Both the position numbers and the translations under genes were made by a program. 64,000 nucleotides of DNA, taken from positions 32,001 to 96,000 of the IMG/VR virus record IMGVR_UViG_3300022555_000024; one strand, written 5' to 3'. This DNA is from a virus. The first letter of the stretch is position 1, and the number at the start of each line of letters is the position of its first letter. This document shows positions 1,854 to 63,951 of the stretch, in pieces. The notes beneath the pieces were generated by a model. That model was not told the origin of the DNA and searched no databases. It worked only from the letters and a program-made list of their open reading frames with translations.

Positions 1854-2456
1854 ATGAAACTTGTAGAACCATCATTTGAAATATTAAATATTTCTGGAGA
1901 TTTAAAAACTATAGAACAAGCAGCAAGAACCTGTTACAAGTCAGAAGATAAAATTACAGAAGGATCTTCAGAAAAGCTTGTTCAAAATTTAATAAGTAGA
2001 GGACATGGAGCAATGTTAGAATTTGTTTCAGTTTCTGTTAGAATAATTACAGATCGTGGAGTTTCGCATGAATTAGTAAGACATAGAATTGCATCGTTTG
2101 CGCAGGAAAGTACGCGTTACGTTAATTATAAAGGAGGCGTCGAATTTATAGAACCATTATCTATTATTGAAGGTCCTAAAGATTGCCAACAAACATTTAG
2201 AAAGACATGTAGTGATATAGAGAAAGCTTACGTATACTTTATAGCAAACGGACTAAAACCACAAGATGCTAGATCAATACTCCCATGCTGTACAAAAACT
2301 GAAATAGTTATTATGATGAATGTTCGGGAATGGAGACATTTCTTTAGTTTACGTTGTTCTAAGGCTGCACATCCAGAAATGCGGCGCATAACCATTCCTA
2401 TGCTAGCAGAATTTCAAAAAAGAATCCCAATAGTTTTTGAAAATCTTTCACTTTGA
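1854..2456 (+). CDS. thyX: flavin-dependent thymidylate synthase
   Basis: ThyX signature ELVRHRIASFAQESTRY, GHGAMLE, and LRCSKAAHPEMR. Confidence 0.95.
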   Translation: MKLVEPSFEILNISGDLKTIEQAARTCYKSEDKITEGSSEKLVQNLISRGHGAMLEFVSVSVRIITDRGVSHELVRHRIASFAQESTRYVNYKGGVEFIEPLSIIEGPKDCQQTFRKTCSDIEKAYVYFIANGLKPQDARSILPCCTKTEIVIMMNVREWRHFFSLRCSKAAHPEMRRITIPMLAEFQKRIPIVFENLSL

Positions 2457-8691: not shown

Positions 8692-8816
8692 CGAATATAA
8701 AAAGAGAAAATTCTTTTTAGAAATTTTTGTTTAGTATGATGTACTATAAATATACAATAATATTTCTATATTAATACTATGTTTATTTTTACATCATATT
8801 TAAACCATAAAATAGA

Positions 8817-12587: not shown

Positions 12588-13178
12588 ATGAAAATTAACA
12601 TTATTAAAGCAGGAATGAGAATAGATCCTTATACGTTTCAACCAGCTTTTCATGCGGAATTTGAGTGGCCTTTAGAACTTGTTCAAAAATTAGATGGACC
12701 TTCAAAGGGAACAGACGAATATTATATTATAATTGGTAAATCTATTATGGATGCAATCGATTCCTACGAAGCACCTATTCTTACTTGGAAAATTCCTTTT
12801 ACAGAAAAAGAATTAAAAGATGAGTTGGAATTAAATGGAATTAAAGTTTGGGATAACATGACAGAGCCAGTTACTTTTCCTCATTTTAATGGAGTTATTT
12901 ATGATATGTTAGATCCAATTATTGCACATACAATAAAAATAGATAATGGTTCGTCTCTATCTGATATTGTTGAAACTATCAAATCTTCTGGAAAAAACTT
13001 TTCACTTTATAAACTATTAATTCCTCATTATCATAAGAAAAGTAAAAATTATATATGCGTTTCTGATGAAGAATATGATGCTATGCAAGATTTATCAAAT
13101 AATACAATTGGTAATTTTTATAATCAGCAAATACATGATTATGATTTATTTGGAAAAATTAGATTTTCTTCTTGGTAA
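12588..13178 (+). CDS. hypothetical protein
   Basis: Open ORF after regA; start uncertain. Confidence 0.55.
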   Translation: MKINIIKAGMRIDPYTFQPAFHAEFEWPLELVQKLDGPSKGTDEYYIIIGKSIMDAIDSYEAPILTWKIPFTEKELKDELELNGIKVWDNMTEPVTFPHFNGVIYDMLDPIIAHTIKIDNGSSLSDIVETIKSSGKNFSLYKLLIPHYHKKSKNYICVSDEEYDAMQDLSNNTIGNFYNQQIHDYDLFGKIRFSSW

Positions 13179-13183
13179 TTTTA

Positions 13184-13300
13184 TATAAATATATTTTAGA
13201 TACACGGAGTGCTGCTTGCAGACTCCGAATTAACAAACAACAGGAATCGCCTTATAGGGATTCTATATTTACAAACTCTAGCCTAAAAGGGGAGAGACTT
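13184..13300 (+). promoter_or_regulatory. late promoter TATAAATA plus three-hairpin ROSE-like 5' UTR of hsp20
   Basis: TATAAATA at 13184-13191. Hairpins at 13205-13227, 13243-13264 and 13276-13296, each with a bulged G; the last pairs with the SD (GGGGAG). Confidence 0.65.
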
Positions 13301-13855
13301 ATGACACGCATCTCAGAACGAACACTCACAACATTCGAAGAATTGGACAGACTAAATAAAGCATTCAGTCCGTTTTCAATTGGATTATTCGATAACCTTA
13401 TCAACAAATCATCAAATCGATTCATTGAATTTCAGAAACCTATTGGTTTTCCACCATATAATATACTGAAAAAAGATGATGTTTACAATATTGTTATTGC
13501 TATAGCCGGTTTTACAAAGGAAGCAATAGAAATAGAGTATTTTGATAAGACGTTGACAGTTAAAGGTAATTCAGAACAGGAACATAATGACGATGTTGAA
13601 GTAGTCTACAATGGTATTGCTAATCGAGCATTTACAAGAACATTTACATTAGCAGATAATATCGAAGTAACAGGAGCTGATCTAAAAAATGGGCTTTTAA
13701 CTATAACATGTCGTCAATGGATACCAGAGAGACTTCAAAAAAGACAAATTCTTATCAATCAAACCAACACAGATCCTGTCACTGGAGGTGATTTAGCGGG
13801 ATCTAAAACAGATTCAATAAAAGGTGACTCGAAACAGTTATTATGTGAATCTTAA
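13301..13855 (+). CDS. small heat shock protein (Hsp20/IbpA family)
   Basis: FPPYNI, IAIAGF, GIANRAFTRTFTL and ADLKNGLL; SD-led ATG at 13301. Confidence 0.92.
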   Translation: MTRISERTLTTFEELDRLNKAFSPFSIGLFDNLINKSSNRFIEFQKPIGFPPYNILKKDDVYNIVIAIAGFTKEAIEIEYFDKTLTVKGNSEQEHNDDVEVVYNGIANRAFTRTFTLADNIEVTGADLKNGLLTITCRQWIPERLQKRQILINQTNTDPVTGGDLAGSKTDSIKGDSKQLLCES

Positions 13856-13865
13856 ACATATCTAG

Positions 13866-13940
13866 TGGGAAGAGACAAGAGGAAAATTGCTGATTCGACA
13901 CGGATCATACGCAGTTTTACTCCTCTTCCCATTTTTATTT
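13866..13940 (+). terminator. long bulged hairpin with U-tract between hsp20 and gp43A
   Basis: tgggaagag/ctcttccca, aaaattgc/gcagtttt and tgattc/ggatca stems, followed by ttttt. Confidence 0.6.
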
Positions 13941-13989
13941 TACAACTTCATTGCTATATTATTAACATAATGAAAATTAAGAATTACTA

Positions 13990-15462
13990 ATGGGTTTCTT
14001 TTATACAAATTCACAATATCATAGAGGTTCTATTTATGTTCGTGGTTACGACACAAATGGAAAATATGTTTCTAAAAAAGTTGATTACCAGCCAACAATA
14101 TTTGTACCTACAAATAAAATAGAAGAATCAGATGGTTGGAGAACTATTTACGGAGATCCAGTAAAGCCCGTAAAAATGCGTTCTGTATTTGATATGAAAG
14201 AATATGTGAATGGATTAGATAATATTTGTGGACTTATAGATACTCGTGATCAAAAATATGCATTTATCAACGACATCATCCCTGGTGAAGTTGAACATAA
14301 AATGGATCTCATAAAGACTTTAATATTTGATATAGAAATAGAAACAGAAGGTGGTCATGAGGATATTAAAAAATTAGTTTGGGGAAATCCTCATCAGAAA
14401 ATAAATGCAATCTGTGTGTGGATAAATAATATAGAATATGTTTCTTGGGGACTCGGTAAGTTTGAAGCAGAAAGAGAAGATCATGAATATAGAGAATTTA
14501 CCGATGAATTAGAAATGTTGCATGACTTTTTTAAGTTTGTTCAACACGAAAAACCGGATATCATATCGGGATGGAATATTAATGGATTTGATATTCCATA
14601 TTTATTCAATAGAGTTTCATTTTTAGGTAAAAGAGAATATGCAAATTTAATGTCTCCTTGGAGACATGCACCAGAATTAGTAGGAAATGAAATTCAACAG
14701 TATACTATTCCAGGAATTGCTATTTTAGATTATATGGAGACATATAAGAAATTTAATATGACGCCTAGAGAATCATATTCTCTTAATAATATTTGTTATG
14801 AAGAACTTGGAGAGAAAAAACTAGACTATTCCGAATTCGATTCTCTCATGGACCTTTATAAAAAAGATTGGAAAACTTTTATTAGATACAATTTACGTGA
14901 TACAGAATTGGTTAAAAAACTAGATGATAAACTTAAATATTTTGATTTAGTAGTTACATATGCATACCTCGGAAAAGTAAATTACGAGGATGTATTTGGC
15001 ACTGTGAAATATTGGGATATTAAGATATATAATCATCTTTACAAAAAGAAAATAGCAATTCCACCAAAACCTAAAGATACAAGAAAAGAAGAATATCCAG
15101 GTGGTTTTGTAAAAGATCCAATCGTAGGTATGCATAAATGGGTATCAACGTTTGATTTGAATTCGCTATATCCATCTGTACTTATTCAGTGGAACATTTC
15201 TCCAGAAACTTTAATTAATGGAAAACATTCTCAGGTTACTGTAGATTCTATATTAAATAAAGAGTATGATAATTCAGAATTGCTTAAAGAAGATATTACT
15301 TTAGCAGCAAACGGGGTATATTTTTCTAAGAAAAAACAAGGGTTTATTCCAGAAATTCTAGAAGAACTTTACGAGACTAGAACAAAATATAAAAAGAAGA
15401 TGCTTGCAGGTGAAGCTAAATTGCAGAAAGTACTAGAAGAAATAAAAAGAAGAAAATTATAA
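13990..15462 (+). CDS. gp43A: family B DNA polymerase, N-terminal part (exonuclease and part of palm)
   Basis: FDIEIE, GWNINGFDIPY, YNLRD and FDLNSLYPS motifs; ends in the fingers region. Confidence 0.92.
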   Translation: MGFFYTNSQYHRGSIYVRGYDTNGKYVSKKVDYQPTIFVPTNKIEESDGWRTIYGDPVKPVKMRSVFDMKEYVNGLDNICGLIDTRDQKYAFINDIIPGEVEHKMDLIKTLIFDIEIETEGGHEDIKKLVWGNPHQKINAICVWINNIEYVSWGLGKFEAEREDHEYREFTDELEMLHDFFKFVQHEKPDIISGWNINGFDIPYLFNRVSFLGKREYANLMSPWRHAPELVGNEIQQYTIPGIAILDYMETYKKFNMTPRESYSLNNICYEELGEKKLDYSEFDSLMDLYKKDWKTFIRYNLRDTELVKKLDDKLKYFDLVVTYAYLGKVNYEDVFGTVKYWDIKIYNHLYKKKIAIPPKPKDTRKEEYPGGFVKDPIVGMHKWVSTFDLNSLYPSVLIQWNISPETLINGKHSQVTVDSILNKEYDNSELLKEDITLAANGVYFSKKKQGFIPEILEELYETRTKYKKKMLAGEAKLQKVLEEIKRRKL

Positions 15463-16559
15463 TGAAAGCAATAGAGGAGATGAGTGATGAGGAACTTATT
15501 TCATATAAAAAGAATTTGGAAGATGAAATAGGAGCTAATAATTCTACTCAAAATGCGTTAAAGGTAGCTTTGAATATGTTATACGGAGCCCTAGCTAATA
15601 GATATTTTAGGTATTTTGATGTAAGAATGGCTTCTGCAGTAACTTTAACAGGTCAGAGTGTTGTTAAATGGTGCGAAAAGTCTACCAATGAATATATGAA
15701 TAAGGTTTTAAAGACAGATAAAGACTATATTATTGCCATTGATACTGATTCAGTGTTTATAACAATGGAGGATATGATTAATAAATATTTTCCAGATGTA
15801 AATGATACTTCTACTGTTATATCAACAATGCAAAAAATAACAGAAAAGAAAATACTTCCTAATATGGCAAAATCATTTGCCGAGCTTTATGAATATTTGA
15901 ATTGTTATAAACCAAGAATGGTTATCAAATCAGAATCTTTGGCAAGTGCAGGTATATTTTTATGTAGAAAGAAATATGCTCTTATGGTTCATTCTAACGA
16001 AGGAATTGTTTATGCAAAACCAAAAATGAAAGTTAAAGGAATAGAGATAATAAGATCATCTACTCCCGAAATATGTAGATCTTCTCTTAAAGAAGCCGTT
16101 CAAATAATATTTGATTCTGGTGAAAAAGCTGTTCAAGAACATATTAAACAATTTAAGAATAAATTTATATCTAGCGGAGTTAATTCTACATCTTTTCCTA
16201 GAGGAATTAACGAACTTAAAAAATGGATAGATATAAATGGAAATCTTAACAAAGGATGCCCAATACATGTAAGAGGAGCTTTAAACTTCAATAGATATGT
16301 AGATAAATTAGGATTAGATAAGAAGTATGAGCATATTCATGAAGGCGATAAAATAAGATTTACATATCTTAAGATGCCTAATCCTTTAAATTCAAATGTA
16401 ATAGGGTTTGTTTCTTTAATGCCAAAAGAATTTGAGTTAGAGGAGTATATAGATTATGAATTGCAGTTTCAAAAGGCGTTTGTTGCACCTATTTCTAATA
16501 TTCTTGATGCAGTAGGATGGCAAGTAAAACCAAGTGTGAATTTGATAGATTTATTTTAA
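15462..16559 (+). CDS. gp43B: family B DNA polymerase, C-terminal part
   Basis: KVALNMLYG, IDTDS, KKYAL and KGIEIIRSSTP; TAATG overlap with gp43A. Confidence 0.92.
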   Translation: MKAIEEMSDEELISYKKNLEDEIGANNSTQNALKVALNMLYGALANRYFRYFDVRMASAVTLTGQSVVKWCEKSTNEYMNKVLKTDKDYIIAIDTDSVFITMEDMINKYFPDVNDTSTVISTMQKITEKKILPNMAKSFAELYEYLNCYKPRMVIKSESLASAGIFLCRKKYALMVHSNEGIVYAKPKMKVKGIEIIRSSTPEICRSSLKEAVQIIFDSGEKAVQEHIKQFKNKFISSGVNSTSFPRGINELKKWIDINGNLNKGCPIHVRGALNFNRYVDKLGLDKKYEHIHEGDKIRFTYLKMPNPLNSNVIGFVSLMPKEFELEEYIDYELQFQKAFVAPISNILDAVGWQVKPSVNLIDLF

Positions 16560-30902: not shown

Positions 30903-31313
30903 ATGTTCGAAGAACCAGCAAAATTTAAACTAGTATATGAAGTTCCCAGTGTAGAAAGCATATATTCATTTATAGTTAAAACTTCTTCTTATAATGTATA
31001 TTTCAAACATATAGGGAATAATGTATATACTTCTAATTTTTTATTATATAGTCATAATGGTGAAATATTGATTACTATGGATAAGATAGATGTCGGCTTA
31101 GATGTTTCTATAGTTGTGTTTATAACATTCATAAATATAATGAAAGATTTTGCTTCTAGAATAAACCCTAGCGCAATAGAATTTAGAGCAAATGATGCAG
31201 ATAGTGAGAAACGAGCGTCTTTATATAAAACATTAACAAAGAAATTTATACCAGATGAGTATGAATTTTCTACAGTTTACATAATAACACCAAAAAATAA
31301 AATACATGAATAA
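30903..31313 (+). CDS. hypothetical protein
   Basis: C-terminal F.A...RASLY motif, shared with 32268-32531. Confidence 0.5.
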   Translation: MFEEPAKFKLVYEVPSVESIYSFIVKTSSYNVYFKHIGNNVYTSNFLLYSHNGEILITMDKIDVGLDVSIVVFITFINIMKDFASRINPSAIEFRANDADSEKRASLYKTLTKKFIPDEYEFSTVYIITPKNKIHE

Positions 31314-32271
31314 GTTATCAAAAAATGAAGTCAATGCAACAGCAAGAGGCGGTTCTGAGTTACAAGCAGAGTATTTACAAAAATATGTTGCAAAAGAACT
31401 TCTAGATCAATTTCAAATAATAATAACAAGAGTTAGAGAACTCGAAGACAAACCACGTTTACTCTGGTGTAAGGAAGTTGTTTCTGAACCAGAATCTCAG
31501 AGGTTAAAAGAACCTGCATTCCGTGATAATTTTAGATATATCATACACAATTCTGATTATCAGAGAAATCAGTTTAGAGATTATCTTGGAGTTCCATTTG
31601 AAAAATCACACGTCTTGAAAAATGCAATAGAACCATCGAATATAGACATTTCTAAAAAATTTTTTCCAGAGAAGGTAAAACTTATTTATTCTTCTACTCC
31701 ACAAAGGGGCCTTAATATTTTATATTCTGTTTTTGACGAGCTTTATAAGGATGACAAAAACATAGAACTAAATGTGTATTCTTCTTTTGATATCTATGGT
31801 CATCATGAAAGAAATAAACCATTTTTGCCACTGTTTGATCAATGTAAATCTCATCCAGGGATAAATTATTATGGTTCAGTTTCTCATGAAGAATTGAAAG
31901 ATGCTACAAAAGAAAATCACATTTTAGCATACCCTTCAATCTGGGAAGAAAGTAGTTGCACTACTATCATGGAAAACATGAGTGCAGGAAATCTTATAGT
32001 GACTAATAACTTAGGAGCATTGCCCGAAACCAGTGCAGGTTTCTCCTTAATGTATGATTATCAATCTAACCTTAATCTACACGCACAGAATTTCTATAAT
32101 ACGTTAAAAGAAGGTATTGACAGTATAAGGGGCAACGGGATAGGAAAAAAAATAAATGGAATGAGTATTACTAGCCTTTTAGAAGAACAAAAAAAATACG
32201 CAGACATTTTCTATAATTGGGAATTCAGAGGGCAACAATGGACAGAATTCTTAACTAAATTGTTAAAATGA
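31306..32271 (+). CDS. GT-B glycosyltransferase (GT1/GT4-like)
   Basis: GGSE, YSSTPQRGL, YPSIWEESSC...ENMSAG and GALPET. Confidence 0.85.
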   Translation: MNKLSKNEVNATARGGSELQAEYLQKYVAKELLDQFQIIITRVRELEDKPRLLWCKEVVSEPESQRLKEPAFRDNFRYIIHNSDYQRNQFRDYLGVPFEKSHVLKNAIEPSNIDISKKFFPEKVKLIYSSTPQRGLNILYSVFDELYKDDKNIELNVYSSFDIYGHHERNKPFLPLFDQCKSHPGINYYGSVSHEELKDATKENHILAYPSIWEESSCTTIMENMSAGNLIVTNNLGALPETSAGFSLMYDYQSNLNLHAQNFYNTLKEGIDSIRGNGIGKKINGMSITSLLEEQKKYADIFYNWEFRGQQWTEFLTKLLK

Positions 32272-37909: not shown

Positions 37910-38350
37910 ATGTATATGGAAAATAAATCAAAAGTTGGAAAAATTGGTGAACTCTTGTGGATTAGAGAATTTGGTGGAAAGCAATTAGATGATGCTTTTG
38001 ATCAAGAATGTGATGTTTTTTTGGATGACAAAAAAATAGAAATTAAAACACAAGTTAGATTTTACAAAGAAAATGCCTTCACTGTAGATAAAAATCAACT
38101 TCAAAAATGCCTAGGCTGGCCAAATCTTAAAAAGGGATTCGGTGCTCAGTTTCTACATTTCGTTGAATACGATTTGTGCACTCCTATTATTACATTTTGG
38201 GAATGTTCAGATAGATTCGATTATAGGGAATTAAGTAATGGGAGAATAGCTTGGGATATTAGTAAAATGACAAAAATCAAGGAAATACAAGATGTCGAAT
38301 CATCAATGCAGTTGCAACAAAACACGAGCTCAAGATATAGAGCAAACTGA
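37910..38350 (+). CDS. putative PD-(D/E)XK nuclease
   Basis: GKIGE...CDVFL...IEIKTQ. Confidence 0.55.
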   Translation: MYMENKSKVGKIGELLWIREFGGKQLDDAFDQECDVFLDDKKIEIKTQVRFYKENAFTVDKNQLQKCLGWPNLKKGFGAQFLHFVEYDLCTPIITFWECSDRFDYRELSNGRIAWDISKMTKIKEIQDVESSMQLQQNTSSRYRAN

Positions 38351-38678
38351 ATCTATTAAAGTACTTTTAGAAGCTTTAGATATTCAGCGTAAAAAATCTA
38401 CAGATTATCAAAATCCAAATTCTAGTATACATCAAGCAGATTATTATCCCAGAGGAGTATCTTCCATATTAGATATAATTCAAGGTAAAGCACTTCGCAT
38501 CAGATCTGTTATAGAAGCTATGGAAAATGATGTTAATTATACTCCAAATTTCGAGTCTATAGAAGATTCATGTATAGATTTAATAAATTATGCATCTTTT
38601 GCGGTATCTTATTGTAGAGGAAAAATGGATGGTCAGAAAGCTGACAAAGATTTTTTGAATAGAAAAATAAAAAAATAA
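38292..38678 (+). CDS. nucleotide-modification-associated domain protein (DUF1599/NMAD1-like)
   Basis: KKSTDY, K..R and ESIEDSCIDLINYASF. Confidence 0.75.
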   Translation: MSNHQCSCNKTRAQDIEQTESIKVLLEALDIQRKKSTDYQNPNSSIHQADYYPRGVSSILDIIQGKALRIRSVIEAMENDVNYTPNFESIEDSCIDLINYASFAVSYCRGKMDGQKADKDFLNRKIKK

Positions 38679-38682
38679 AAAA

Positions 38683-39333
38683 ATGATTTCTACAATAGAT
38701 AAAATACGCGATGAGTTTCGTATTAAATTATTATCTGGAACATTTGTTATAGACAAAACCGGGGTAAAAACAGTAGATATTATAGGTGCAAAATTTTTAG
38801 CTAATGAACCGTTTATTTTTGGTACACCAAATCAAGATTATATAAGAAGAGAATTAGCATGGTATGAATCTCAGAGCAGAAATGTTTATGATATTGAAGA
38901 ACCAGTACCATTAATTTGGAAAAAATGTGCAAGCCCGGAAGGTCTTATTAATTCTAACTATGGTTGGTGTATTTATTCTAAAGAAAATGGATCACAATAT
39001 GATAACGTTTTAAAGGAACTTCGGCAAAATTCTGAATCTAGACGGGGCCAGATGATATATACGAGACCCAGTATGCATTCCGATTTTAATACAGATGGAA
39101 TGTCTGATTTTATGTGTTGTAGCAACACAACTCATTTTATAAGATCGGGAGAATTAGAAACAACTGTAAATTTTAGAAGTCAGGATGCTGTATTCGGTTA
39201 TAATAATGACTATGCATTTATGAAATATGTTCACGATAAATTGGCTAATGATTTAAATATAAGACCTGGAAATATTCATTGGTTTGCATCTTCACTCCAC
39301 ATTTATGAACGACACTTTAAATTTATAAAATGA
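38683..39333 (+). CDS. dCMP hydroxymethylase (T4 gp42-like, thymidylate synthase fold)
   Basis: NSNYGW, MIYTRPSM, DFMC, RSQDAVFGYNNDYAF (cytosine-specifying Asp) and SLHIYERHF. Confidence 0.85.
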   Translation: MISTIDKIRDEFRIKLLSGTFVIDKTGVKTVDIIGAKFLANEPFIFGTPNQDYIRRELAWYESQSRNVYDIEEPVPLIWKKCASPEGLINSNYGWCIYSKENGSQYDNVLKELRQNSESRRGQMIYTRPSMHSDFNTDGMSDFMCCSNTTHFIRSGELETTVNFRSQDAVFGYNNDYAFMKYVHDKLANDLNIRPGNIHWFASSLHIYERHFKFIK

Positions 39334-39779
39334 CAGAAAAAGAACTTTATTGGGCAAAAAGATACTTAGGAATAGCTAAAGAAGTGTCAACGTGGTCAAA
39401 GGATCCATCAACAAAAGTTGGTGCTGTTGCTGTTGGTTCAAAGGGCCAAATATTATCTCAGGGTTTTAATGGTTTTGCTCGGGGTATTAAAGATACCACC
39501 GAAAGATTAAATAACAGAGAAATGAAATATTCTCTGATGGTTCATGCAGAAATGAATACTATTTATAATGCAACTTATAATGGAGTATCTCTCGATGGAG
39601 CTTCTCTATACGTTTATGGTCTTCCTGTATGTAGTGAATGTGCAAAGGGAATTATACAGGTTGGGATACGTTCTGTTTATATGAACATAGAATCAGAATG
39701 GCCTGAAAAATGGAAAGATTCTTGGGAATTTACCAAGACAGTATTTACAGAATGTGGTGTTAAATTTTATTTAATATGA
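39330..39779 (+). CDS. dCMP deaminase
   Basis: SKDPSTKVG, HAEMN and PVCSEC. Confidence 0.92.
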   Translation: MTEKELYWAKRYLGIAKEVSTWSKDPSTKVGAVAVGSKGQILSQGFNGFARGIKDTTERLNNREMKYSLMVHAEMNTIYNATYNGVSLDGASLYVYGLPVCSECAKGIIQVGIRSVYMNIESEWPEKWKDSWEFTKTVFTECGVKFYLI

Positions 39780-40879
39780 AAATAGCTGTTATTAAGTTAG
39801 GGGCACGGTTAGTATTTGGCGATAAGGTTGGTTCTAGTGGCGGCAGTGGTGAAGCTCAATCATTGGTAAATATGTTATCAGAAGCTGGAGCAGAAGTTCA
39901 TTGTTTTACAAAGATACTTAAGGATGATTATATACCAAATGATATTAATATACATCAAATAGAAGAAGAATATTCAACAGTGAACACTTATGATATACTT
40001 ATTGTTATAAACGGAACTGTGAACTTTTTTGGAGGTGTTGCTGATAATTCACAGATTTTAAATTATCATATGATAAACAATTTTTCTAAGAAAGTTATAT
40101 ACATTCATTGTGATCCCAATCTTCCTTTGAAACAACTTTGGCCTTCTATAAAGAATAGAACATGGGCTTCTGATTGGAAAGAATCTGATATAGTTATTGT
40201 TAAGAAAATAGATGTAGTTACTCAATCAACAAACATAACAAAAGTACTGACAGCATTTAAGGACATACATATAGATAAGATTTTTCAATACGATTTCCAG
40301 AAATTTCCTATGATGTTTGTAAAACCACAAATATCAGAAGAAAGAATTTATACATCTGACTTATCTTATGGCGGAACATTTAGAGCAGGCCGCAGAGAAA
40401 AGAAATTAATAGAATTTTACTTTGGGTATCCCGAAGATTTAAAAGTAGAATTGTTTGGGAAAATTAAAGAAGAAAAATTTAACCCCCAAAAAGTAGGAAC
40501 TCTTAGATCTCCAAACTTTTCTGGCCCAGTTGATTACAATAAAATGCTTCATAAAATGTCAGAATCCAAAGCACATGTTGCTATAGGGGATGGACATTAC
40601 CCAGAGTTTGGGATGATTTCTCAGAGAGTATATGAGTCAATCATGTCTGATTGCGTTACGTTTATAGATATAGATTTTGATAGAAATAAAAGAGTTTTTG
40701 GAGACACTGAATTAGGTAAATTTCTTTATGTAACAAATAGAGATCAAGTTTATAAAAGGTTAAAAATGTTAACTAATTCTGAGCTAAATACTATAATAAA
40801 ATTACAACATAAAATAGTAGATTTTAATAGAGATACATATTGCTCCGATTTTTATAAACTAATTCAAAATTTAGCATGA
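39776..40879 (+). CDS. DNA beta-glucosyltransferase-like protein (T4 Bgt family)
   Basis: MKIAVIKLG start, YGGTFRAGRREKKLIEF (cf. T4 Bgt YGGSFRSGQRE), IGD..Y, RVYE and FID..FD. Confidence 0.85.
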   Translation: MKIAVIKLGARLVFGDKVGSSGGSGEAQSLVNMLSEAGAEVHCFTKILKDDYIPNDINIHQIEEEYSTVNTYDILIVINGTVNFFGGVADNSQILNYHMINNFSKKVIYIHCDPNLPLKQLWPSIKNRTWASDWKESDIVIVKKIDVVTQSTNITKVLTAFKDIHIDKIFQYDFQKFPMMFVKPQISEERIYTSDLSYGGTFRAGRREKKLIEFYFGYPEDLKVELFGKIKEEKFNPQKVGTLRSPNFSGPVDYNKMLHKMSESKAHVAIGDGHYPEFGMISQRVYESIMSDCVTFIDIDFDRNKRVFGDTELGKFLYVTNRDQVYKRLKMLTNSELNTIIKLQHKIVDFNRDTYCSDFYKLIQNLA

Positions 40880-41682
40880 CACAAATAAAAGATACATTCG
40901 ATGATTCATCATCCATGTTTTTTAATAATAATTATTTTGGGAATGCAAAGTTTTCCAACGGGTGGCACATGTCGTTTGCCTTTAGATATACTACAACATG
41001 TACAGAAATTTTAAGAGTAAAGAGAGAAAATCAACAAGACTCACTAAAAATATTAGATATTGGGTGTGGTAACAAGACATTTTACAGATTTTGGATGTGC
41101 AATTTTGACTCCCATTGTAGACCTAGAATTAATTATGTCGGTTTAGAGTACCTTAAGGATGTTGTGGAAGAAGCAAATAAGACCTCCAGCGAGACTTTTG
41201 CCAATTCAAATGAAGTAATTCAATATGATTTGAATACACAATCACTGCATGACATAGGAAAATTTGAAAAATATGATGTTATACTTTTACAGGAAATTCT
41301 AGAACATGTTACAGAAGAAACTGGTAAATCTCTTTTAAAAGAAGCAAAAGAAATTTTATCAGATCGAGGTTTCATAATTGTTTCGTCTCCTAATCCAAAA
41401 AAATCTCAAGGACAAGAATTTGTCTGGCCGGAAAATCATATTCAGGAGTTTACTTTAGACGAAATGAAAGCTATGATTCAGGAAGCAGGATTTTCTATTA
41501 AACGTGTGAATGGTTGGTTGGGTAAAGCTAAATATTTTAAGAAATTGCTAGATAAAGAAACTTTAGATTTGTATAATAATGTTAAAGATGTATCTCAAGG
41601 TTTAGCTGCTAGTATTATAGCATTCATGAAACCAGAGATAGCTGAATGCTATATTATAGTTGCCGAAAACAATAAAAAATAA
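40876..41682 (+). CDS. class I SAM-dependent methyltransferase
   Basis: ILDIGCG, EILEHV, SSPN and HIQEF. Confidence 0.85.
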   Translation: MTQIKDTFDDSSSMFFNNNYFGNAKFSNGWHMSFAFRYTTTCTEILRVKRENQQDSLKILDIGCGNKTFYRFWMCNFDSHCRPRINYVGLEYLKDVVEEANKTSSETFANSNEVIQYDLNTQSLHDIGKFEKYDVILLQEILEHVTEETGKSLLKEAKEILSDRGFIIVSSPNPKKSQGQEFVWPENHIQEFTLDEMKAMIQEAGFSIKRVNGWLGKAKYFKKLLDKETLDLYNNVKDVSQGLAASIIAFMKPEIAECYIIVAENNKK

Positions 41683-41686
41683 TAGT

Positions 41687-42092
41687 ATGCAAAAATACGT
41701 TTTGGGTTTTATATTTGATACTGGATTGGAACACGTAGTATTAATAGAAAAAAAACAGACCTGATTGGCAAAAAGGAAAACTCAACGGAATAGGAGGTAA
41801 GATAGAATATAATGAATCTCCTTTAGATGCTATGATAAGAGAAGCACATGAAGAAACAAACGTAACGTCGGATCTTTGGCTTTACGTTGCTACTTTATAT
41901 TTTACAGAATGCGAATTGCATGTATTTGCTGTAAGTGGATTGGAGTATTATCAAGCAATTTCGATGACCGATGAAAAAATCCAAAAGTTAAGAATAAAAG
42001 ATCTTGGTATTACTACTATTAAACCAATAGAAAATGTTCCATCATTGATAACTTTAGCTAAACAATCTTTAATAACAGAATTTTATACATAA
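41687..42092 (+). pseudogene. Nudix hydrolase, frameshifted in an A-run (~41750)
   Basis: MQKYVLGF...IEKK then, after the shift, RPDWQKGKLNGIGGKIEYNESPLDAMIREAHEET (Nudix box). Confidence 0.8.
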
Positions 42093-42095
42093 AAT

Positions 42096-43877
42096 ATGAA
42101 AATTGTAATATTCTCTGGTGGCACCGGATCTGTTGGTTTACAACGAGGACTTTATAAAGTTTTTGGTCCTGATTGTTTAGATTATTCTGTTATAATTAAT
42201 TGTTATGATAATGGAAAAAGTACTGGTACTTGCCGCCAAGTTTTTGACGGAAAAATATTAGGACCATCAGACTTAAGAAAAAATCAACTTCTTAGACACG
42301 AATTATCTCATGGTAATAATAAGCTTTTAGAATTTTTAGAACAACGTCTTACTTTTTCTTATTCTGATATAGAAGATGCGATAACTGATCAGTTGGTAGA
42401 TTTATTAGACAAAAATGATGAGCATGAACTCGATTTGTATTCTATTTGTATGGAAGGAACCCAACTTTTTTTTAACTCAGAAAATGCTACTAATGTAGAG
42501 TATAAAGACTTTTCTGTAGCTAATATAATATATTCGGGTTTAGCATCAAAGTATGGTATGAACGGAGCAGCGAAACAAATGTCTAGAGTTCTTGGAATAT
42601 ATCCGGACGATGTTATTTGCAACGATGATACCTCACTCTTTTTACAAGCCAAAACCAAATCGGGTCATATAATATCAGATGAAGGAGATTTGGTAGAATG
42701 GAATAATGCGGAAGATAAAATAACAGAATGTTTTTTGTTAGATGTAGATGGAAATCAAGCAACACCAATCTTAACAACTGAATGTAAAGATTTAATAGAC
42801 AATGCAGATGTTTTAATATTTTCATCAGGAACTCAATGGTCTTCTCTTATCCCAACTTATATGTCTATAGGATTTACAGAAGCTATATCTAAGAGTAAAG
42901 CTAAGAAATATGTAGTTTTAAATACGTCTCAGGATAAAGATATTAAAGGCCTGTCTGGTTTAGAACTTCTTGATCTAATAACAACTCATCTTAAAGTTGA
43001 TACCAAGACACTTATCCCAGTTATTTCTAGTAATGCATCTGATGATATTTTAATAACACCCGATCAAGTAGAACAAGTAAAACAAAAATTTGCAGATGTT
43101 GTTTATTCCGAAATGAGTGAAGGGAATAAACACAATCCAAATAAACTAGTTCTTTCTATATTTGGGAATTATTTTGGAATTAAAACTATTTTAGATAGAA
43201 ATAATTTAGTCTTTGATTTAGATGACACTGTAATAGCAAGAAATCTAAATTTTGAGTGGATTTCGAGAGAAAATTGTGCAATGTTTGACTTTATTAACAG
43301 ATCAAACAAACTTTCTTTGTTTATCTGTACAGGAAACGATGTTAGCAAATTGAAAGGACATTTCGAAACATCTATAAACACCTTTGCGGATGGCGGCGTT
43401 AATGAATATCTAGTATCTAAAGAAAACATAACATTTATAAAGCATTTAGATAATGATATGCTTATCGAAAAATCCACAATGGAAACTCTTATAGAACTCT
43501 TAGATGTTCATGGAATACCAAAGCGTATGATACAGAATAGAAACAATTCTATTTTATCTATTAGACCTATATTACCTGAATATAGATATTCAATTTTTAA
43601 TTTAATTTTCTATATTCTAATAATAAATAATTTGAATGATAGGATAGAAGTAAAAATGACAGGAAATAGTACGGTAGAATTGTCTACCATATCGTTATCT
43701 AAAACTGTTATTATGAACACTATATTTAAGGATAAGGAAATTTCTTACGTTGGGGACGAGCCTATTGGAAACGATAAGGATATGTTTTCTAATCCAAAAA
43801 TTCATGGAATAAAAGTTAAGGGAGCTTTTGACACAAATATGTTATTAAAAATATTATGCATTCACTCATTATCGTAG
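42096..43877 (+). CDS. CofD/YvcK-family transferase fused to a HAD-family phosphatase/mutase
   Basis: FSGGTG, YDNGKSTG, GPSDLRK and SSGTQWSSLIP; C-terminal FDLDDT, CTGN and VGDE..GND. Confidence 0.8.
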   Translation: MKIVIFSGGTGSVGLQRGLYKVFGPDCLDYSVIINCYDNGKSTGTCRQVFDGKILGPSDLRKNQLLRHELSHGNNKLLEFLEQRLTFSYSDIEDAITDQLVDLLDKNDEHELDLYSICMEGTQLFFNSENATNVEYKDFSVANIIYSGLASKYGMNGAAKQMSRVLGIYPDDVICNDDTSLFLQAKTKSGHIISDEGDLVEWNNAEDKITECFLLDVDGNQATPILTTECKDLIDNADVLIFSSGTQWSSLIPTYMSIGFTEAISKSKAKKYVVLNTSQDKDIKGLSGLELLDLITTHLKVDTKTLIPVISSNASDDILITPDQVEQVKQKFADVVYSEMSEGNKHNPNKLVLSIFGNYFGIKTILDRNNLVFDLDDTVIARNLNFEWISRENCAMFDFINRSNKLSLFICTGNDVSKLKGHFETSINTFADGGVNEYLVSKENITFIKHLDNDMLIEKSTMETLIELLDVHGIPKRMIQNRNNSILSIRPILPEYRYSIFNLIFYILIINNLNDRIEVKMTGNSTVELSTISLSKTVIMNTIFKDKEISYVGDEPIGNDKDMFSNPKIHGIKVKGAFDTNMLLKILCIHSLS

Positions 43878-44593
43878 CAGCTGGAAATGGTAGTAGGATG
43901 GGCAGTATTCCCATTCCTAAGGCTTTATTTCCAATTAATGGAAAACCAAATATAGAATGGATTATAGAAAGTGCTAGAGGTTATTTTGATGATATTATTA
44001 TTGTAGCAAGAAATGGGTTTGGATTTCATTTTAACTATTTAAAAAATTCAAAAGAAACTCCAATAAGTATTCTAGAAATAAGTTCAGGATTAGGTGACGG
44101 CCATGCAGTTCTTTCTACTCTTCAAATTCTAAAGGATCAAGGGAAATTGGATGAAAGAATAATAACAATAATATGGGGAGATTTATATTGTCCTACTTCT
44201 ATACTTTTTGTCGAATTAAAATCTCACATTTCAAATATATCTAGACAGCCAATAATAGTTCCTGTAGCATACGAGAAAGATCCATATGTACATTTTTCTA
44301 TAGATCCTGATGGAAAAATACGAGCAGCAAATTTTAGTAAATTTGGAGAAATTATAACAGAAGGTCTTCATGATCAATCAGTATTTATGGGCAGTGCGAG
44401 AGTGTTTCTTAAATTTTTAACAGATTTGCATAATTCTTTATGGAAAGATGGCAAATATGTATCAAATTCGGGTGAACTCAACATGCTTCATATCTTCCAT
44501 CTTATGTATAACGTAGGTTCTCCAGCCATAGTTCATATAACAGAAAATATTTTATCATCCTATAACTCGGTCAAGGAGGCCGAAAAAATATGA
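43856..44593 (+). CDS. sugar-phosphate nucleotidyltransferase (NTP_transferase / MobA-like)
   Basis: IVAAGNGSRMG..PKAL, GLGDGHAV and WGD. Confidence 0.85.
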   Translation: MHSLIIVAAGNGSRMGSIPIPKALFPINGKPNIEWIIESARGYFDDIIIVARNGFGFHFNYLKNSKETPISILEISSGLGDGHAVLSTLQILKDQGKLDERIITIIWGDLYCPTSILFVELKSHISNISRQPIIVPVAYEKDPYVHFSIDPDGKIRAANFSKFGEIITEGLHDQSVFMGSARVFLKFLTDLHNSLWKDGKYVSNSGELNMLHIFHLMYNVGSPAIVHITENILSSYNSVKEAEKI

Positions 44594-45042
44594 CACCTCA
44601 ATTGAAATTTTGTAAAGTAGCAGATGTAAAATCACCAACAAGAGCACATAGTACAGATGCGGGAATTGATTTTTTTGTACCAAATGATTTTATAGAAACC
44701 TTATTAAAACCTGGTTGTTCTATTCTTATTCCATCTGGAATTAAGGTCGATGTACCTATTGGGTGGGCTTTAGTATTCTTTAATAAATCTGGTGTTGCCG
44801 TTAAGAAGAATCTTTTGGTAGGAGCGGAAGTTGTAGATTCTGGATATGAGGGTCAAGTACACATACATCTTATCAACGTGGGTACAGGAATTACTACAAT
44901 ATCATCAGGAGAAAAGATAATTCAAGGTATTATGTTACCTATAGGTTCTCACTTTCCCATTGAAACTTTAGAAGAAGATATGTGGAAGGATTCTAAATCT
45001 GATAGAGCAGAAGGCGGTTTTGGTTCTTCTGGTGTAAAATAA
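44590..45042 (+). CDS. dut: dUTPase
   Basis: AGIDF, KSG, VVDSGYEG, Q and RAEGGFGSSG. Confidence 0.95.
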   Translation: MTPQLKFCKVADVKSPTRAHSTDAGIDFFVPNDFIETLLKPGCSILIPSGIKVDVPIGWALVFFNKSGVAVKKNLLVGAEVVDSGYEGQVHIHLINVGTGITTISSGEKIIQGIMLPIGSHFPIETLEEDMWKDSKSDRAEGGFGSSGVK

Positions 45043-45105: not shown

Positions 45106-46077
45106 ATGAATAAAATCATTATCCCTATTAGTATTTCTGGCTCAGGTAAATCTACTTGGGCTAAGAATTATGTAAAAAATTCTGAAGATAAATCCGTGAT
45201 AGTTTCTAGAGATGCTATCCGTATGTCTCTTTTTGGTCTTACTGACGTAACATACGACGAGTATTATGCGCAACCACAAGAAGTTATACGTAAGCGCGAG
45301 GAAATAGTAACAAATTTTTCTACACAGCAAATTTGGTATGCACTTCAAAATGGGTTTAATGTAATAGCAGACAACACTCATCTTCGTAAATGCTACATTA
45401 ATATGTATAAAGTATTTGGTGTAGAACTTGAACTTATTTTTGATACAAATCTTAATGAATGTAAAATTTGCCAAGGGAATAGACAAAGACATACCAGTGA
45501 AGAAGTAATTCTTGCGCAGAATAAATCATTAAAATCTCTTCTAGATACAAATATTATTAATGAAATTGATGAATATAATAAATTCGTAAATGATATACAG
45601 ATAAATTTTAGAAAAGAACCATATTCTGTATCTAAGCAAGATGCTGTGGTTGTTGATATAGATGGTACTGTTGCTTTGAAGGGAGATAGAGGAATCCATG
45701 ATCTTAGTAAAGTAAAACTAGATACACCAAACAAAGGTATCACAGAAATTGTTAAAGTATTGCATGAAGGCACAACTAATATTATCTTTTGTTCTGGTCG
45801 GGAAGATAATTGTCGTGAAGAAACTCTTGCATGGTTAAATGATCCTAAAAATGGAATAGTTAGTTCTGCTTTTCCTGAGGATCAATTCAGGAACTTTCAT
45901 CTTAGAATGAGGAAAGCAGGTGATAATAGAAAAGATTGGAAAATTAAAGCAGAACTCTGGAATAACATTCAACAGGATTTTAATATCGTTGCAATGATCG
46001 ACGACAGAGATCAAGTAGTTCATATTGGTCGTCGTCTTGGTTATACGATGATTCAAGTAAATTACGGAGACTTTTGA
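45106..46077 (+). CDS. pseT: polynucleotide kinase / 3'-phosphatase
   Basis: SGSGKST, SRDAIR, DIDGT, SGR and DDRDQVV. Confidence 0.9.
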   Translation: MNKIIIPISISGSGKSTWAKNYVKNSEDKSVIVSRDAIRMSLFGLTDVTYDEYYAQPQEVIRKREEIVTNFSTQQIWYALQNGFNVIADNTHLRKCYINMYKVFGVELELIFDTNLNECKICQGNRQRHTSEEVILAQNKSLKSLLDTNIINEIDEYNKFVNDIQINFRKEPYSVSKQDAVVVDIDGTVALKGDRGIHDLSKVKLDTPNKGITEIVKVLHEGTTNIIFCSGREDNCREETLAWLNDPKNGIVSSAFPEDQFRNFHLRMRKAGDNRKDWKIKAELWNNIQQDFNIVAMIDDRDQVVHIGRRLGYTMIQVNYGDF

Positions 46078-50355: not shown

Positions 50356-51150
50356 ATGAAAAAATTACTAATTATTCTTGGGATACTTTTAACATCTGCA
50401 ACTGCTTATTCTAAACCTATTATAATTGATGGCTCAACAACAGTAGGTCCAATAGCAAAATCTTTTGCATCAGAATTCCAAAAGAATGGAATTGAGGTTT
50501 CAGTGTCAGAATCTGGCTCTGGAAACGGTGTAAAGTCACTACTCAATGGAACTTGTGACGTTGCAACTTCTTCAAGACATTTAAAACAAGAAGAAATTAC
50601 CGCAGCAAGTACGAAGGGAGTGCATCCTGTTCTAACAATAGTAGCTCTTGATGGATTGTCAGTTATAGTTCATCCAAGTAATCCAATAAAGAATCTTACT
50701 ATTCAACAAGTAAGTGATATCTATACCGGAAAAATAACAAATTGGAATCAAGTAGGTGGTCCATTTGCTATTATTAATGTTATTCAACGAGAATCTAATT
50801 CTGGTACACAGGAAGCGTTCCACGAGTTGGTTATCGGAAAGGATAATCATACTAAACAAGGTGCAGAAACTCAATCATCATCTGGTGCTGTTAAGAATAG
50901 AGTAGCATCAACACCTTCTGCGATTGGTTATGATGGTCTTGGATTTGTTGATAAATCTGTTAAAGCATTAACAATAAATGGAATCAAGGCATCCTCTATA
51001 ACAGTTAAAAGTAATCAATATAAGATATCTAGGCCTTTATATTTTATAACAAATGGTGCACCAGTAGGAAATGTTAAATTGTTTGTTGATTATGCAAAAA
51101 GTGTTTCAGGAAAAAAAATAATTACCGAACTAGGATTCATAGTAAAATAA
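50356..51150 (+). CDS. pstS: phosphate ABC transporter substrate-binding protein
   Basis: Signal peptide; DGSTTV, SGSGNG, SSR, VALDGL, RESNSGT and ISRPLY. Confidence 0.92.
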   Translation: MKKLLIILGILLTSATAYSKPIIIDGSTTVGPIAKSFASEFQKNGIEVSVSESGSGNGVKSLLNGTCDVATSSRHLKQEEITAASTKGVHPVLTIVALDGLSVIVHPSNPIKNLTIQQVSDIYTGKITNWNQVGGPFAIINVIQRESNSGTQEAFHELVIGKDNHTKQGAETQSSSGAVKNRVASTPSAIGYDGLGFVDKSVKALTINGIKASSITVKSNQYKISRPLYFITNGAPVGNVKLFVDYAKSVSGKKIITELGFIVK

Positions 51151-62343: not shown

Positions 62344-63951
62344 ATGAAAATAAGACCATTACACCTGATAGACGGGTACAAAGTTGGTCACCGTGATCAA
62401 TACCCAGATGGAACAAACTATGTTTACTCAAATTTGACTTTCAGAAAAAGCCGTGTGAAAGATGTTAACTATGTTGTGGCATTTGGATTCCAATACCTCA
62501 AGAAAGAGTATTTAATAGATCTTTGGAACAAAGAATTCTTCTTTCAACCAAAAGCAAAGGTTGTATCAGAATACAAGCGTATACTTGCAAATTATCTTGG
62601 AAATCCTAATATTCGAGTAGATCATGTAGAAGCATTACATGACCTAGGTTATTTGCCAATAAAGATTAAAGCTATCAAGGAAGGAACTCTAGTACCAATT
62701 GGTGTTCCATTGTTTACTATTGTTAACACTCATCCAGATTTTTTCTGGTTAACTAACTACCTTGAGACTCTCCTGAGTAATATTCTCTGGAAGCCGATTA
62801 CTTCCGCCACGACTGCATTCGAATACAGGAAGAGATTTGAGCAGTATGTGTCTCTTACCGGCTATGCAAAAGAGTTTGTTATTTGGCAGGGACATGATTT
62901 TAGCTTTCGGGGTATGTCAGGCATTGAAGATGCTGTAATGAGTGGTGCAGGACATTTATTGTCGTTCTCAGGAACAGATACCATCCCGGCCATCGACTTC
63001 ATAGAAGATTATTATGGCGCTAATTCTGATGAAGAGCTTATAGGTGGTTCAGTCAACGCAACAGAGCATTCTGTGATGTGTTTGGGTATGAAAGATGGTG
63101 AGATAGGAACAATTAAGCGTTTGATTGATATTGTTTATCCTTCTGGAATTGTTTCTATTGTTTCTGATACATGGGATTTATGGAAAGTTTTGACTGAATA
63201 TTTGCCTACTCTTAAAAACGACATTCTTGCACGCGACGGTCGTGTTGTTGTTCGTCCAGACTCTGGTGATCCTACAGAGATAATATGTGGTGTAAACATA
63301 AAGCATTTTGATAATATGAGCGGCGCAGAATTCTTTTTTTCCAATAACATGAATGGATGTCGTTTATTCTCTATTAATGGAGTTAATGGAGTTTATGAGG
63401 TTCAGTCTCATACAGGAACCGATTTTGTTGTTAAGGAAGTTGAATTGTCACCAGCAGAGAAGGGTGCATATCAGCTTCTCTGGGAAACTTTTAGTGGAAC
63501 AATCAATGATAAAGGTTACAAAGAGTTGAATGGTAAGGTTGGTTTGATCTACGGAGATTCCATCACTTTGGATAGACAGAAGATGATTCTTGAAAAGTTA
63601 GAAGCAAAAGGATTCTCTGCGAGTAACTTAGTTCTTGGAATTGGTAGCTTCACGTACGAATATGTTACCAGAGACACTTTTGGAGGCGCTATGAAGGCTA
63701 CATGGGGTGTTGTCAATGGAGAAGAAAGGGAAATTTTCAAAGACCCCATCACAGATTCAGGTTTCAAGAAGTCGGCTAAAGGTCTTCTGAAGGTTTACAA
63801 AGATGAATTTGGTACATTGAAATTTAAGGATCAGTGTACTAAAGAAGAAGAAAATGAAGGAGAGTTACAAGTTATTTTTGAGGATAGTGTTTTATATAAT
63901 GACACAACTTTTAAAGAAGTCAGAGAAACACTTTTAGGAAACTTAAAATAA
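62344..63951 (+). CDS. nicotinamide phosphoribosyltransferase-like protein (probable Namat of NARP1)
   Basis: DGYKVGH, HDFSFRG, ATEHSVM, VSDTWD, RPDSGDP, YGDSIT and KDPITD..KKSAKG. Confidence 0.92.
   Translation: MKIRPLHLIDGYKVGHRDQYPDGTNYVYSNLTFRKSRVKDVNYVVAFGFQYLKKEYLIDLWNKEFFFQPKAKVVSEYKRILANYLGNPNIRVDHVEALHDLGYLPIKIKAIKEGTLVPIGVPLFTIVNTHPDFFWLTNYLETLLSNILWKPITSATTAFEYRKRFEQYVSLTGYAKEFVIWQGHDFSFRGMSGIEDAVMSGAGHLLSFSGTDTIPAIDFIEDYYGANSDEELIGGSVNATEHSVMCLGMKDGEIGTIKRLIDIVYPSGIVSIVSDTWDLWKVLTEYLPTLKNDILARDGRVVVRPDSGDPTEIICGVNIKHFDNMSGAEFFFSNNMNGCRLFSINGVNGVYEVQSHTGTDFVVKEVELSPAEKGAYQLLWETFSGTINDKGYKELNGKVGLIYGDSITLDRQKMILEKLEAKGFSASNLVLGIGSFTYEYVTRDTFGGAMKATWGVVNGEEREIFKDPITDSGFKKSAKGLLKVYKDEFGTLKFKDQCTKEEENEGELQVIFEDSVLYNDTTFKEVRETLLGNLK

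Follow-up and report, generated by a model that had tools for sequence, protein, structure and literature searches.

A T4-type cytosine glycosylation operon that probably carries its own sugar-donor supply in a T4-like phage

Introduction

Hypermodification of DNA determines which restriction and CRISPR defences a phage evades and is a source of enzymes for epigenetic sequencing tools. The operon studied here lies at positions 37910-45042 of a 64,000-nucleotide stretch of viral DNA (the window; bases 32001-96000 of the 112-kb IMG/VR virus record IMGVR_UViG_3300022555_000024, completeness estimate 62%). It couples the well-understood glucosylation of 5-hydroxymethylcytosine (5hmC) in phage T4 to a conserved, biochemically uncharacterised three-domain cassette, in which a YvcK-phosphomannomutase (PMM) fusion protein is paired with a nucleotidyltransferase.

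Phage-encoded donor synthesis for base glycosylation is already known from arabinosyl-5-hydroxycytosine (arabinosyl-5hoC) phages. In RB69, DLP3 and HY126 a thymidylate synthase (TS) homologue makes the hydroxylated base, a phage nucleoside diphosphate (NDP)-sugar route including a HAD enzyme and a nucleotidyltransferase provides the donor (UDP-arabinose in RB69 and DLP3), and GT-B enzymes act on DNA (PMC13326640). It has also been proposed for Bacillus phage SP-15, in which a phosphomannomutase (Glc-6-P to Glc-1-P) and a UDP-glucose pyrophosphorylase feed DNA base glycosylation (PMC5977210). A further lead comes from Mycoplasma fermentans, the capsule of which is reported to be beta-(1,6)-glucofuranose free of other substituents; its GT2 synthase, BAH69904, is encoded in an island of Clostridia origin that also contains a split CofD-family gene and a gene for an NDP nucleotidyltransferase, and the authors know of no pathway leading to a glucofuranose donor (PMC11658790). 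The polymer is made in strain PG18 even though the annotation there breaks the CofD-family gene into two pseudogene pieces (PMC11658790).

The window operon shares with T4 a gp42 homologue with the same active-site signature, a full-length Bgt homologue and a dCMP deaminase. Unlike in T4, which uses UDP-glucose of the host, its glycosyltransferase is tied to the YvcK-PMM fusion and the nucleotidyltransferase, with a methyltransferase and a Nudix gene in addition, and its dTMP would come from ThyX, not Td. Compared with RB69, DLP3 and HY126, the operon likewise combines a HAD enzyme with a nucleotidyltransferase, but its donor enzymes are of unrelated families (YvcK-like and PMM-like), its glycosyltransferase is of the Bgt type rather than GT4-like, its TS homologue keeps the residue that marks the hydroxymethyl rather than the 5-hydroxy type, and neither an arabinose-5-phosphate isomerase nor a kinase-nucleotidyltransferase fusion is present in the window. 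SP-15 differs in that it modifies a uracil derivative with conventional enzymes and a glycerophosphotransferase, no YvcK-like domain being reported (PMC5977210). The M. fermentans island has the same accessory pair adjoining a glycosyltransferase, but there the acceptor is a capsule polymer and not DNA, and the enzyme is GT2 and not GT63 (PMC11658790). Literature searches combining CofD with phage, hmC or glucosyltransferase returned no paper linking a YvcK-PMM and nucleotidyltransferase cassette to phage DNA modification.

Results

We read the operon as a pathway of the T4 type for cytosine replacement and glycosylation that supplies its own sugar donor, a reading to which we assign a probability of roughly 60%. 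Gene identities were assigned by Pfam, PHROG and NCBIfam scans (Table 1). The enzyme predicted to make the base is 57% identical to T4 gp42 and matches T4 dCMP hydroxymethylase (1b49) with an E-value of 3.5e-73 over residues 4-214 (1b49 residues 7-224), its catalytic Cys aligning with T4 Cys148. Some gp42-like enzymes yield 5-hydroxy-dCMP, and these have Asn at the position of Asp169 of E. coli ThyA; Asp in place of N177 is diagnostic of cytosine specificity, and a hydroxymethyl rather than a methyl product is indicated by an acidic residue at the L143 position (PMC13326640, 2026). In the window enzyme Asp169 is retained (RSQD), and the motifs SDFMCC and RSQDAVFGYNND hold Asp at both the L143 and N177 positions of E. 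coli ThyA, the L143-position Asp standing three residues ahead of the catalytic Cys. The same 5hm-dCMP signature (Asp169, N177 to Asp, L143 to Asp) was present in all 17 distinct cassette-linked TS-fold homologues with readable motifs, that is, those fully readable from 22 of the 37 phage loci described below. Because Asp169 is kept and Asp occupies the N177 and L143 positions in the window enzyme and its homologues, the predicted base is 5hmC. A 5-hydroxy-dCMP synthase of the RB69 gp48 type, and with it the arabinose reading, was rejected since Asp169 is not replaced by Asn.

The glycosyltransferase of the operon resembles T4 BGT throughout. A profile of 20 cassette-linked Bgt homologues matched T4 BGT (1bgt) at 6.5e-58 over positions 1-335, covering the full length, and T4 residues E22, D100, R191, R195, R269 and E272 are invariant columns in the alignment of these homologues. 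In T4 BGT, the donor of which is UDP-glucose and the acceptor 5hmC within duplex DNA, we take Asp100 and Glu22 to be catalytic and Arg191, Arg195, Arg269 and Glu272 to bind UDP. Sequence comparison points to an inverting, UDP-sugar-using DNA glycosyltransferase. The cassette-linked homologues share 39-58% identity with one another and 31% with T4 Bgt, and by this measure the gene is a member of a subfamily that travels with the putative donor cassette. Within an isolate-phage collection only RsoM2USA and LR756500 carry the Bgt subfamily, and the same two are the only carriers of the fusion protein.

The fusion protein consists of a YvcK/GlmR-like domain of the CofD superfamily (residues 1 to about 345) and a HAD domain resembling eukaryote-type PMM and alpha-phosphoglucomutase (about 360-593). 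YvcK/GlmR (UPF0052) of Firmicutes is the best sequence and structure match to the N-terminal domain: profile comparison with the PDB gave 4e-23 for YvcK-like 2ppv and 0.33 for CofD 3c3d, and in the AlphaFold model (pLDDT 92) Foldseek returned TM-scores of 0.8 to YvcK-like 2o2z, 0.62-0.65 to CofD and about 0.6 to PMMs. The loop motifs GGTG, D-x-G-x-S-T-G, S-D-x-R-K-N and G-T-x-W-S-S of YvcK are present. YvcK itself, which binds UDP-sugars and regulates GlmS, is a stand-alone protein of about 320 aa, whereas the window-type domain always comes joined to the PMM-like domain, with a nucleotidyltransferase and a glycosyltransferase as partners; of the 120 best fusion relatives listed, nearly all have the two-domain length, most of them 560-650 aa. 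A CofD identity of this domain was rejected on the same scores and for want of a CofC partner. For the C-terminal domain the best profile match was PMM 7myv (1.8e-11), the relatives including Lactococcus alpha-phosphoglucomutase 4bnd, and by Foldseek PMMs ranked above trehalose-6-phosphate phosphatases. The domain has the attributes of the HAD IIB group, namely motifs I and IV, a C2B cap and a PMM-like fold, and mutase activity is predicted; a mutase and a bisphosphate phosphatase would look alike at this level. The HAD motifs DxDxT and GDExxxGND are intact, with D374, D376, T378 and GDE..GND invariant, and across 51 non-redundant phage and bacterial sequences both domains contain invariant charged residues, acidic as well as basic.

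The nucleotidyltransferase downstream of the fusion is most similar to GlmU, with 5vmk as the best match of its profile in the PDB (3e-17 over 197 positions). The motifs AAGxGxRM...PK (AAGNGSRMG..PKAL in the window) and WGD are invariant and agree with the uridylyltransferase signature of GlmU, G-x-G-x-R...PK plus a metal-binding Asp. The 245-aa protein has none of the left-handed beta-helix acetyltransferase domain found at the C-terminus of GlmU, and the Pfam and NCBIfam scans gave no match to the CofC family.

To define the distribution of the cassette, we compiled 37 phage loci (34 from an alignment-based IMG/VR scan, RsoM2USA, LR756500 and the window); searching viral contigs with the fusion as a single protein gave no match, although the alignment-based scan did recover loci. 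Overall, hundreds of metagenomic proteins represent the cassette, which is also found in a single cultured jumbo phage, Ralstonia phage RsoM2USA, and in polysaccharide loci of gut bacteria. The order Bgt-[methyltransferase]-fusion-nucleotidyltransferase recurs across the 37 phage loci, RsoM2USA included. All but one have the nucleotidyltransferase (36/37), mostly directly downstream of the fusion, and in 34 a same-strand Bgt-like gene precedes the fusion, usually as its neighbour and often with overlapping or abutting frames. A TS-fold gene lies within 10 kb in 22 of the 37. Other common neighbours encode a thymidylate-kinase-like kinase, a guanylate-kinase-like protein, a MazG-like pyrophosphatase and a helicase. 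The co-occurrence test put forward in the earlier note on this stretch, which had been made from the letters and reading frames, came out strongly for the CofD-like and nucleotidyltransferase genes with the Bgt-like and hydroxymethylase genes, but not for the methyltransferase, which is present in only five of the 37 loci.

Two features of individual phage loci are recorded here. In 17 of them (L008-L029) a guanylate-kinase-like gene (PF00625 2e-17) stands directly 3' of the nucleotidyltransferase, and a MazG-like gene often comes next; the window lacks the guanylate-kinase-like gene, which could encode an hm-dCMP kinase or an enzyme recycling nucleoside monophosphate (NMP). In the viral contig L037 the Bgt-like and TS-fold genes are each split into two open reading frames (ORFs; 8187-9320 and 13045-13944), pointing to frameshifts or to errors in sequencing.

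Scanning prokaryotes with a single genome for each species yielded 27 bacterial loci, all in metagenome-assembled genomes (MAGs) and mostly from gut Firmicutes. Fusion and nucleotidyltransferase are adjacent in 27/27, within polysaccharide clusters, and Bgt and TS-fold genes are absent from all 27. Their neighbours encode GT2, GT8 and GT4 glycosyltransferases, a Wzx flippase, a CMP-sugar synthetase, a SIS protein and an epimerase/dehydratase. In a quick-search, midpoint-rooted tree with some long branches, phage and bacterial fusions were interleaved with at least four switches, and some phage fusions clustered with a Clostridia clade (SH-aLRT 99%). Because the pair adjoins glycosyltransferases in loci with either DNA or surface glycans as acceptors, it appears to serve differing glycosyltransferases and acceptors. 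To stand beside a glycosyltransferase each time is the behaviour that would be expected of a donor-supply unit, and mobility between DNA and glycan loci fits poorly with an enzyme that has to recognise the final acceptor. In the Clostridia MAG L050 the cassette is immediately preceded by a GT2 gene, the product of which has 52% identity (E 5e-141) to the M. fermentans protein cluster containing BAH69904. Glucofuranan is the sole experimental product tied to the cassette, by association, and raises the chance of an unusual sugar. A separate case is a 116-kb contig of a Steroidobacteraceae MAG (L039), the fusion of which is nested in the phage clade with 54% identity to phage copies; it has a guanylate-kinase-like gene and no Bgt within 8 kb, and is probably a phage contig binned into the MAG.

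The remaining genes of the operon concern precursor supply or are of less certain function. Sequence assignments support a dTMP supply by dCMP deaminase, dUTPase and ThyX, the last encoded outside the operon. The methyltransferase model (AlphaFold2, pLDDT 81) gave as best Foldseek matches generic methyltransferases of small molecules, among them RebM and AtmM, both sugar O-methyltransferases, and the top 50 contained no DNA methyltransferase; sequence and fold searches of the PDB likewise returned generic class I matches only. Its family has 15 members. The Nudix gene is broken by one extra A in an A8 run (41748-41755), so that the first 25 codons (ATG at 41687) are in a different frame from the Nudix box and remainder; this could reflect an assembly error, a pseudogene or slippage. 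A metagenome scan for further copies of the A-run region gave no match. No Nudix homologue was found in the other cassette loci, and the gene was seen at the window locus only. Methyltransferase and Nudix genes are lineage-specific extras. The NMAD1/DUF1599 protein was tried as a MazG-like dCTPase and rejected (hhalign probability 11% against the MazG-like dCTPase candidates of related loci), and literature searches for DUF1599 gave nothing useful on its role. No homologue of the first ORF was found close to the cassette in the other loci compared.

Table 1 Features of the operon and the ThyX gene of the window
Feature	Position	Strand	Basis
ORF, 146 aa, function not assigned	37910..38350	+	overlaps next gene; no Pfam, PHROG or NCBIfam match
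NMAD1/DUF1599 domain protein	38292..38678	+	PF07659 6.9e-6 (26.8 bits, cut-off 25); phrog_1485 3e-12
gp42-type dCMP hydroxymethylase (5hm-dCMP synthase), predicted	38683..39333	+	thymidylate-synthase fold, PF00303 2e-17
dCMP deaminase	39330..39779	+	PF00383 3e-17; phrog_174 3e-38
Bgt-like DNA glycosyltransferase, GT63 family	39776..40879	+	PF09198 1e-23; phrog_7922 6e-58
Class I S-adenosylmethionine (SAM) methyltransferase, small-molecule type	40876..41682	+	Methyltransf_23/31/12/11; UbiG 5e-11, below cut-off
Nudix hydrolase, frameshifted	41687..42092	+	PF00293 1.4e-7 for 41748-42092
Two-domain YvcK/GlmR-like + PMM-like enzyme	42096..43877	+	CofD-family N-terminus PF01933 9e-18; HAD C-terminus
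GlmU-N-domain-like sugar-phosphate nucleotidyltransferase	43856..44593	+	MobA-like PF12804 1.7e-11; 245 aa
dUTPase, trimeric type	44590..45042	+	PF00692 8e-18; phrog_135 2e-35; TIGR00576 93 bits (cut-off 102.6)
ThyX flavin-dependent thymidylate synthase, outside operon	1854..2456	+	PF02511 2e-52

The ORF list places ten plus-strand genes, abutting or overlapping, across the operon, with 4-base overlaps at four junctions and a 22-base overlap at one. The earlier note had described such a run, and its packed plus-strand arrangement and all of its named domains but the nuclease were recovered. Its TS-fold enzyme proved to be cytosine-directed as supposed, by the identity to gp42 and the Asp at the N177 position, and ThyX is indeed encoded elsewhere in the window. 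Its Nudix gene is real, although split by the one-base frameshift. The label of nuclease given to the first ORF did not hold up: because this ORF matches no family, the label comes down to a D...E-x-K motif (D-x9-E-I-K) seen by eye in the translation.

The window derives from a T4-like phage and also encodes a clamp loader, a split family-B DNA polymerase (two abutting ORFs of 490 and 365 aa, 13990-16559), UvsX, a gp41-type helicase and a primase. Genes for polynucleotide kinase (PNK), PstS and NAMPT are likewise in the window (PNKP 45106-46077, PstS 50356-51150, NAMPT-like 62344-63951), as are two RNA-ligase-domain proteins (2508-3548 and 7579-8691), the former with an N-terminal HNH motif. 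A second glycosyltransferase of the GT-B type (31306-32271; Glycos_transf_1, phrog_2170 2e-34) lies 8 kb upstream of the operon and could add a second sugar onto DNA, in the manner of T2/T6 or RB69; conservation of this gene near the cassette does not extend to the other loci. Megablast of the operon region against isolate phages gave no match, and a promoter scan of the region performed no better than on shuffled sequence.

Discussion

In the mechanism that we propose, the gp42-type enzyme would convert dCMP to 5-hydroxymethyl-dCMP, the PMM-like domain would turn hexose 6-phosphate into the 1-phosphate, possibly via the 1,6-bisphosphate, the GlmU-like nucleotidyltransferase would form the UDP-hexose, and the Bgt-like enzyme would place the hexose in beta linkage onto 5hmC of DNA. 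The YvcK-like domain would bind or act on a nucleotide-sugar or sugar phosphate of this small-molecule pathway; candidate roles are provision of a bisphosphate primer for the HAD-type mutase, anomeric phosphorylation, ring-form conversion and product sensing. In the lineage of the window the small-molecule-type methyltransferase may methylate the sugar. This sugar may be glucopyranose, glucofuranose or another hexose, and may differ from the glucose of T4. The cassette itself is most likely a portable sugar-nucleotide supply unit feeding the DNA glycosyltransferase. Of the two options offered in the earlier note, the better fit is that the NDP-sugar is made by the phage itself, the HAD domain being PMM-like, the nucleotidyltransferase GlmU-like and the pair at the service of unrelated glycosyltransferases. 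The accompanying claim, that either route would give a modification other than glucosyl-hmC, does not follow: since self-made UDP-glucose would give plain glucosyl-hmC, an own-donor route need not exclude it. The earlier interpretation is thus supported in part, its own-donor option standing and both its CofC/CofD analogy and its certainty of a modification other than glucosyl-hmC falling away.

How the sugar is made and where it goes can be read in other ways. It is unlikely that the DNA carries plain T4-like beta-glucosyl-hmC, with the cassette only boosting or securing UDP-glucose and the YvcK-like domain acting as a UDP-sugar-sensing regulator. Every donor and catalytic residue of T4 BGT is conserved, alpha-phosphoglucomutase 4bnd is among the PDB relatives of the HAD domain, and YvcK/GlmR is known as a UDP-sugar-binding regulator. 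A phage this large would consume millions of sugar units in each burst. However, the cassette-linked Bgt proteins form a group distinct from the T4 type, a dedicated supply of UDP-glucose would seldom be needed in bacterial polysaccharide loci, the polymer made by the related GT2 is one of glucofuranose, and the invariant acidic residues of the YvcK-like domain suggest catalysis over sensing. Less probable still is a CofC/CofD-style route, in which the nucleotidyltransferase would make an NDP-linked phospho-compound and the CofD-like domain would move the phospho-group to a hydroxyl of hmC or glycosyl-hmC, leaving a phosphodiester-linked decoration. It is with F420 synthesis, by the 2-phospho-L-lactate guanylyltransferase CofC and the transferase CofD, that the operon shares a superfamily-level fold of the N-terminal domain (PF01933; Foldseek 3c3e TM 0.65), always paired with a MobA-clan nucleotidyltransferase; moreover, the IspD/TarI-type enzymes that match the N-terminal half of the latter are alditol-phosphate cytidylyltransferases, the guanylate-kinase-like protein of 17 loci could recycle released NMP, and SP-15 DNA carries a phospho-linked sugar (PMC5977210). 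Yet the N-terminal domain is far closer to YvcK than to CofD in both profile and structure, no CofC match was obtained, the fused HAD domain is mutase-like and not needed for a phosphodiester route, and the genes around the fusion belong to DNA modification or polysaccharide synthesis, with no F420 genes nearby. Proteins with the same invariant residues serve phage DNA and bacterial polysaccharides, which makes acceptor recognition unlikely, and the M. fermentans glucofuranan, the product of a related island, reportedly has no other substituents (PMC11658790).

We consider it very improbable that the cassette is unrelated to DNA modification, as an auxiliary metabolic module for envelope sugars of the host with Bgt nearby by coincidence. 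Published work does place YvcK/GlmR in UDP-GlcNAc and cell-envelope homeostasis of Firmicutes, and the cassette is found in bacterial surface-polysaccharide loci, but the upstream, same-strand Bgt-like gene recurs across very different phages, and in the isolate-phage collection only the two Bgt-subfamily records have the cassette. A possible reading, which we hold tentatively, is that the cassette makes an unusual nucleotide sugar, UDP-glucofuranose being the most plausible, by a hitherto unknown route independent of flavin, so that the DNA would contain beta-glucofuranosyl-5hmC, perhaps O-methylated. In this case the furanose form would be set by the PMM-like and YvcK-like domains by way of a 1,6-bisphosphate.

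Several points weigh against a T4-type replacement and glycosylation pathway with its own donor supply. Functions are predicted ones for every member of the fusion family, and the role given to the YvcK-like domain is a guess, as a plain mutase and pyrophosphorylase would not need such a domain. The uracil-binding Gln of GlmU aligns with Ser in the nucleotidyltransferase, the base specificity of which is a prediction, and IspD/TarI enzymes match its N-terminal half at 1e-13 to 1e-12. Counts over the 37 phage loci derive from motif-based retrieval with several near-duplicates and crude, simple ORF calling. Searches of the incomplete 112-kb record with cassette-locus queries found no dNMP-kinase-like or MazG-like dCTPase genes (in T4 terms, gp1-like and gp56-like genes); full replacement of cytosine is for this reason not supported.

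The own-donor reading nevertheless connects a familiar phage pathway with proteins of wider distribution. Solving the cassette would assign catalysis to the YvcK/GlmR superfamily, the role of which continues to be debated. The synthesis of glucofuranose polymers by bacteria might be explained as well, and a sugar new to phage DNA could come to light. If the UDP-glucofuranose reading were true, hundreds of uncultured phages would carry a novel modification of a DNA base.

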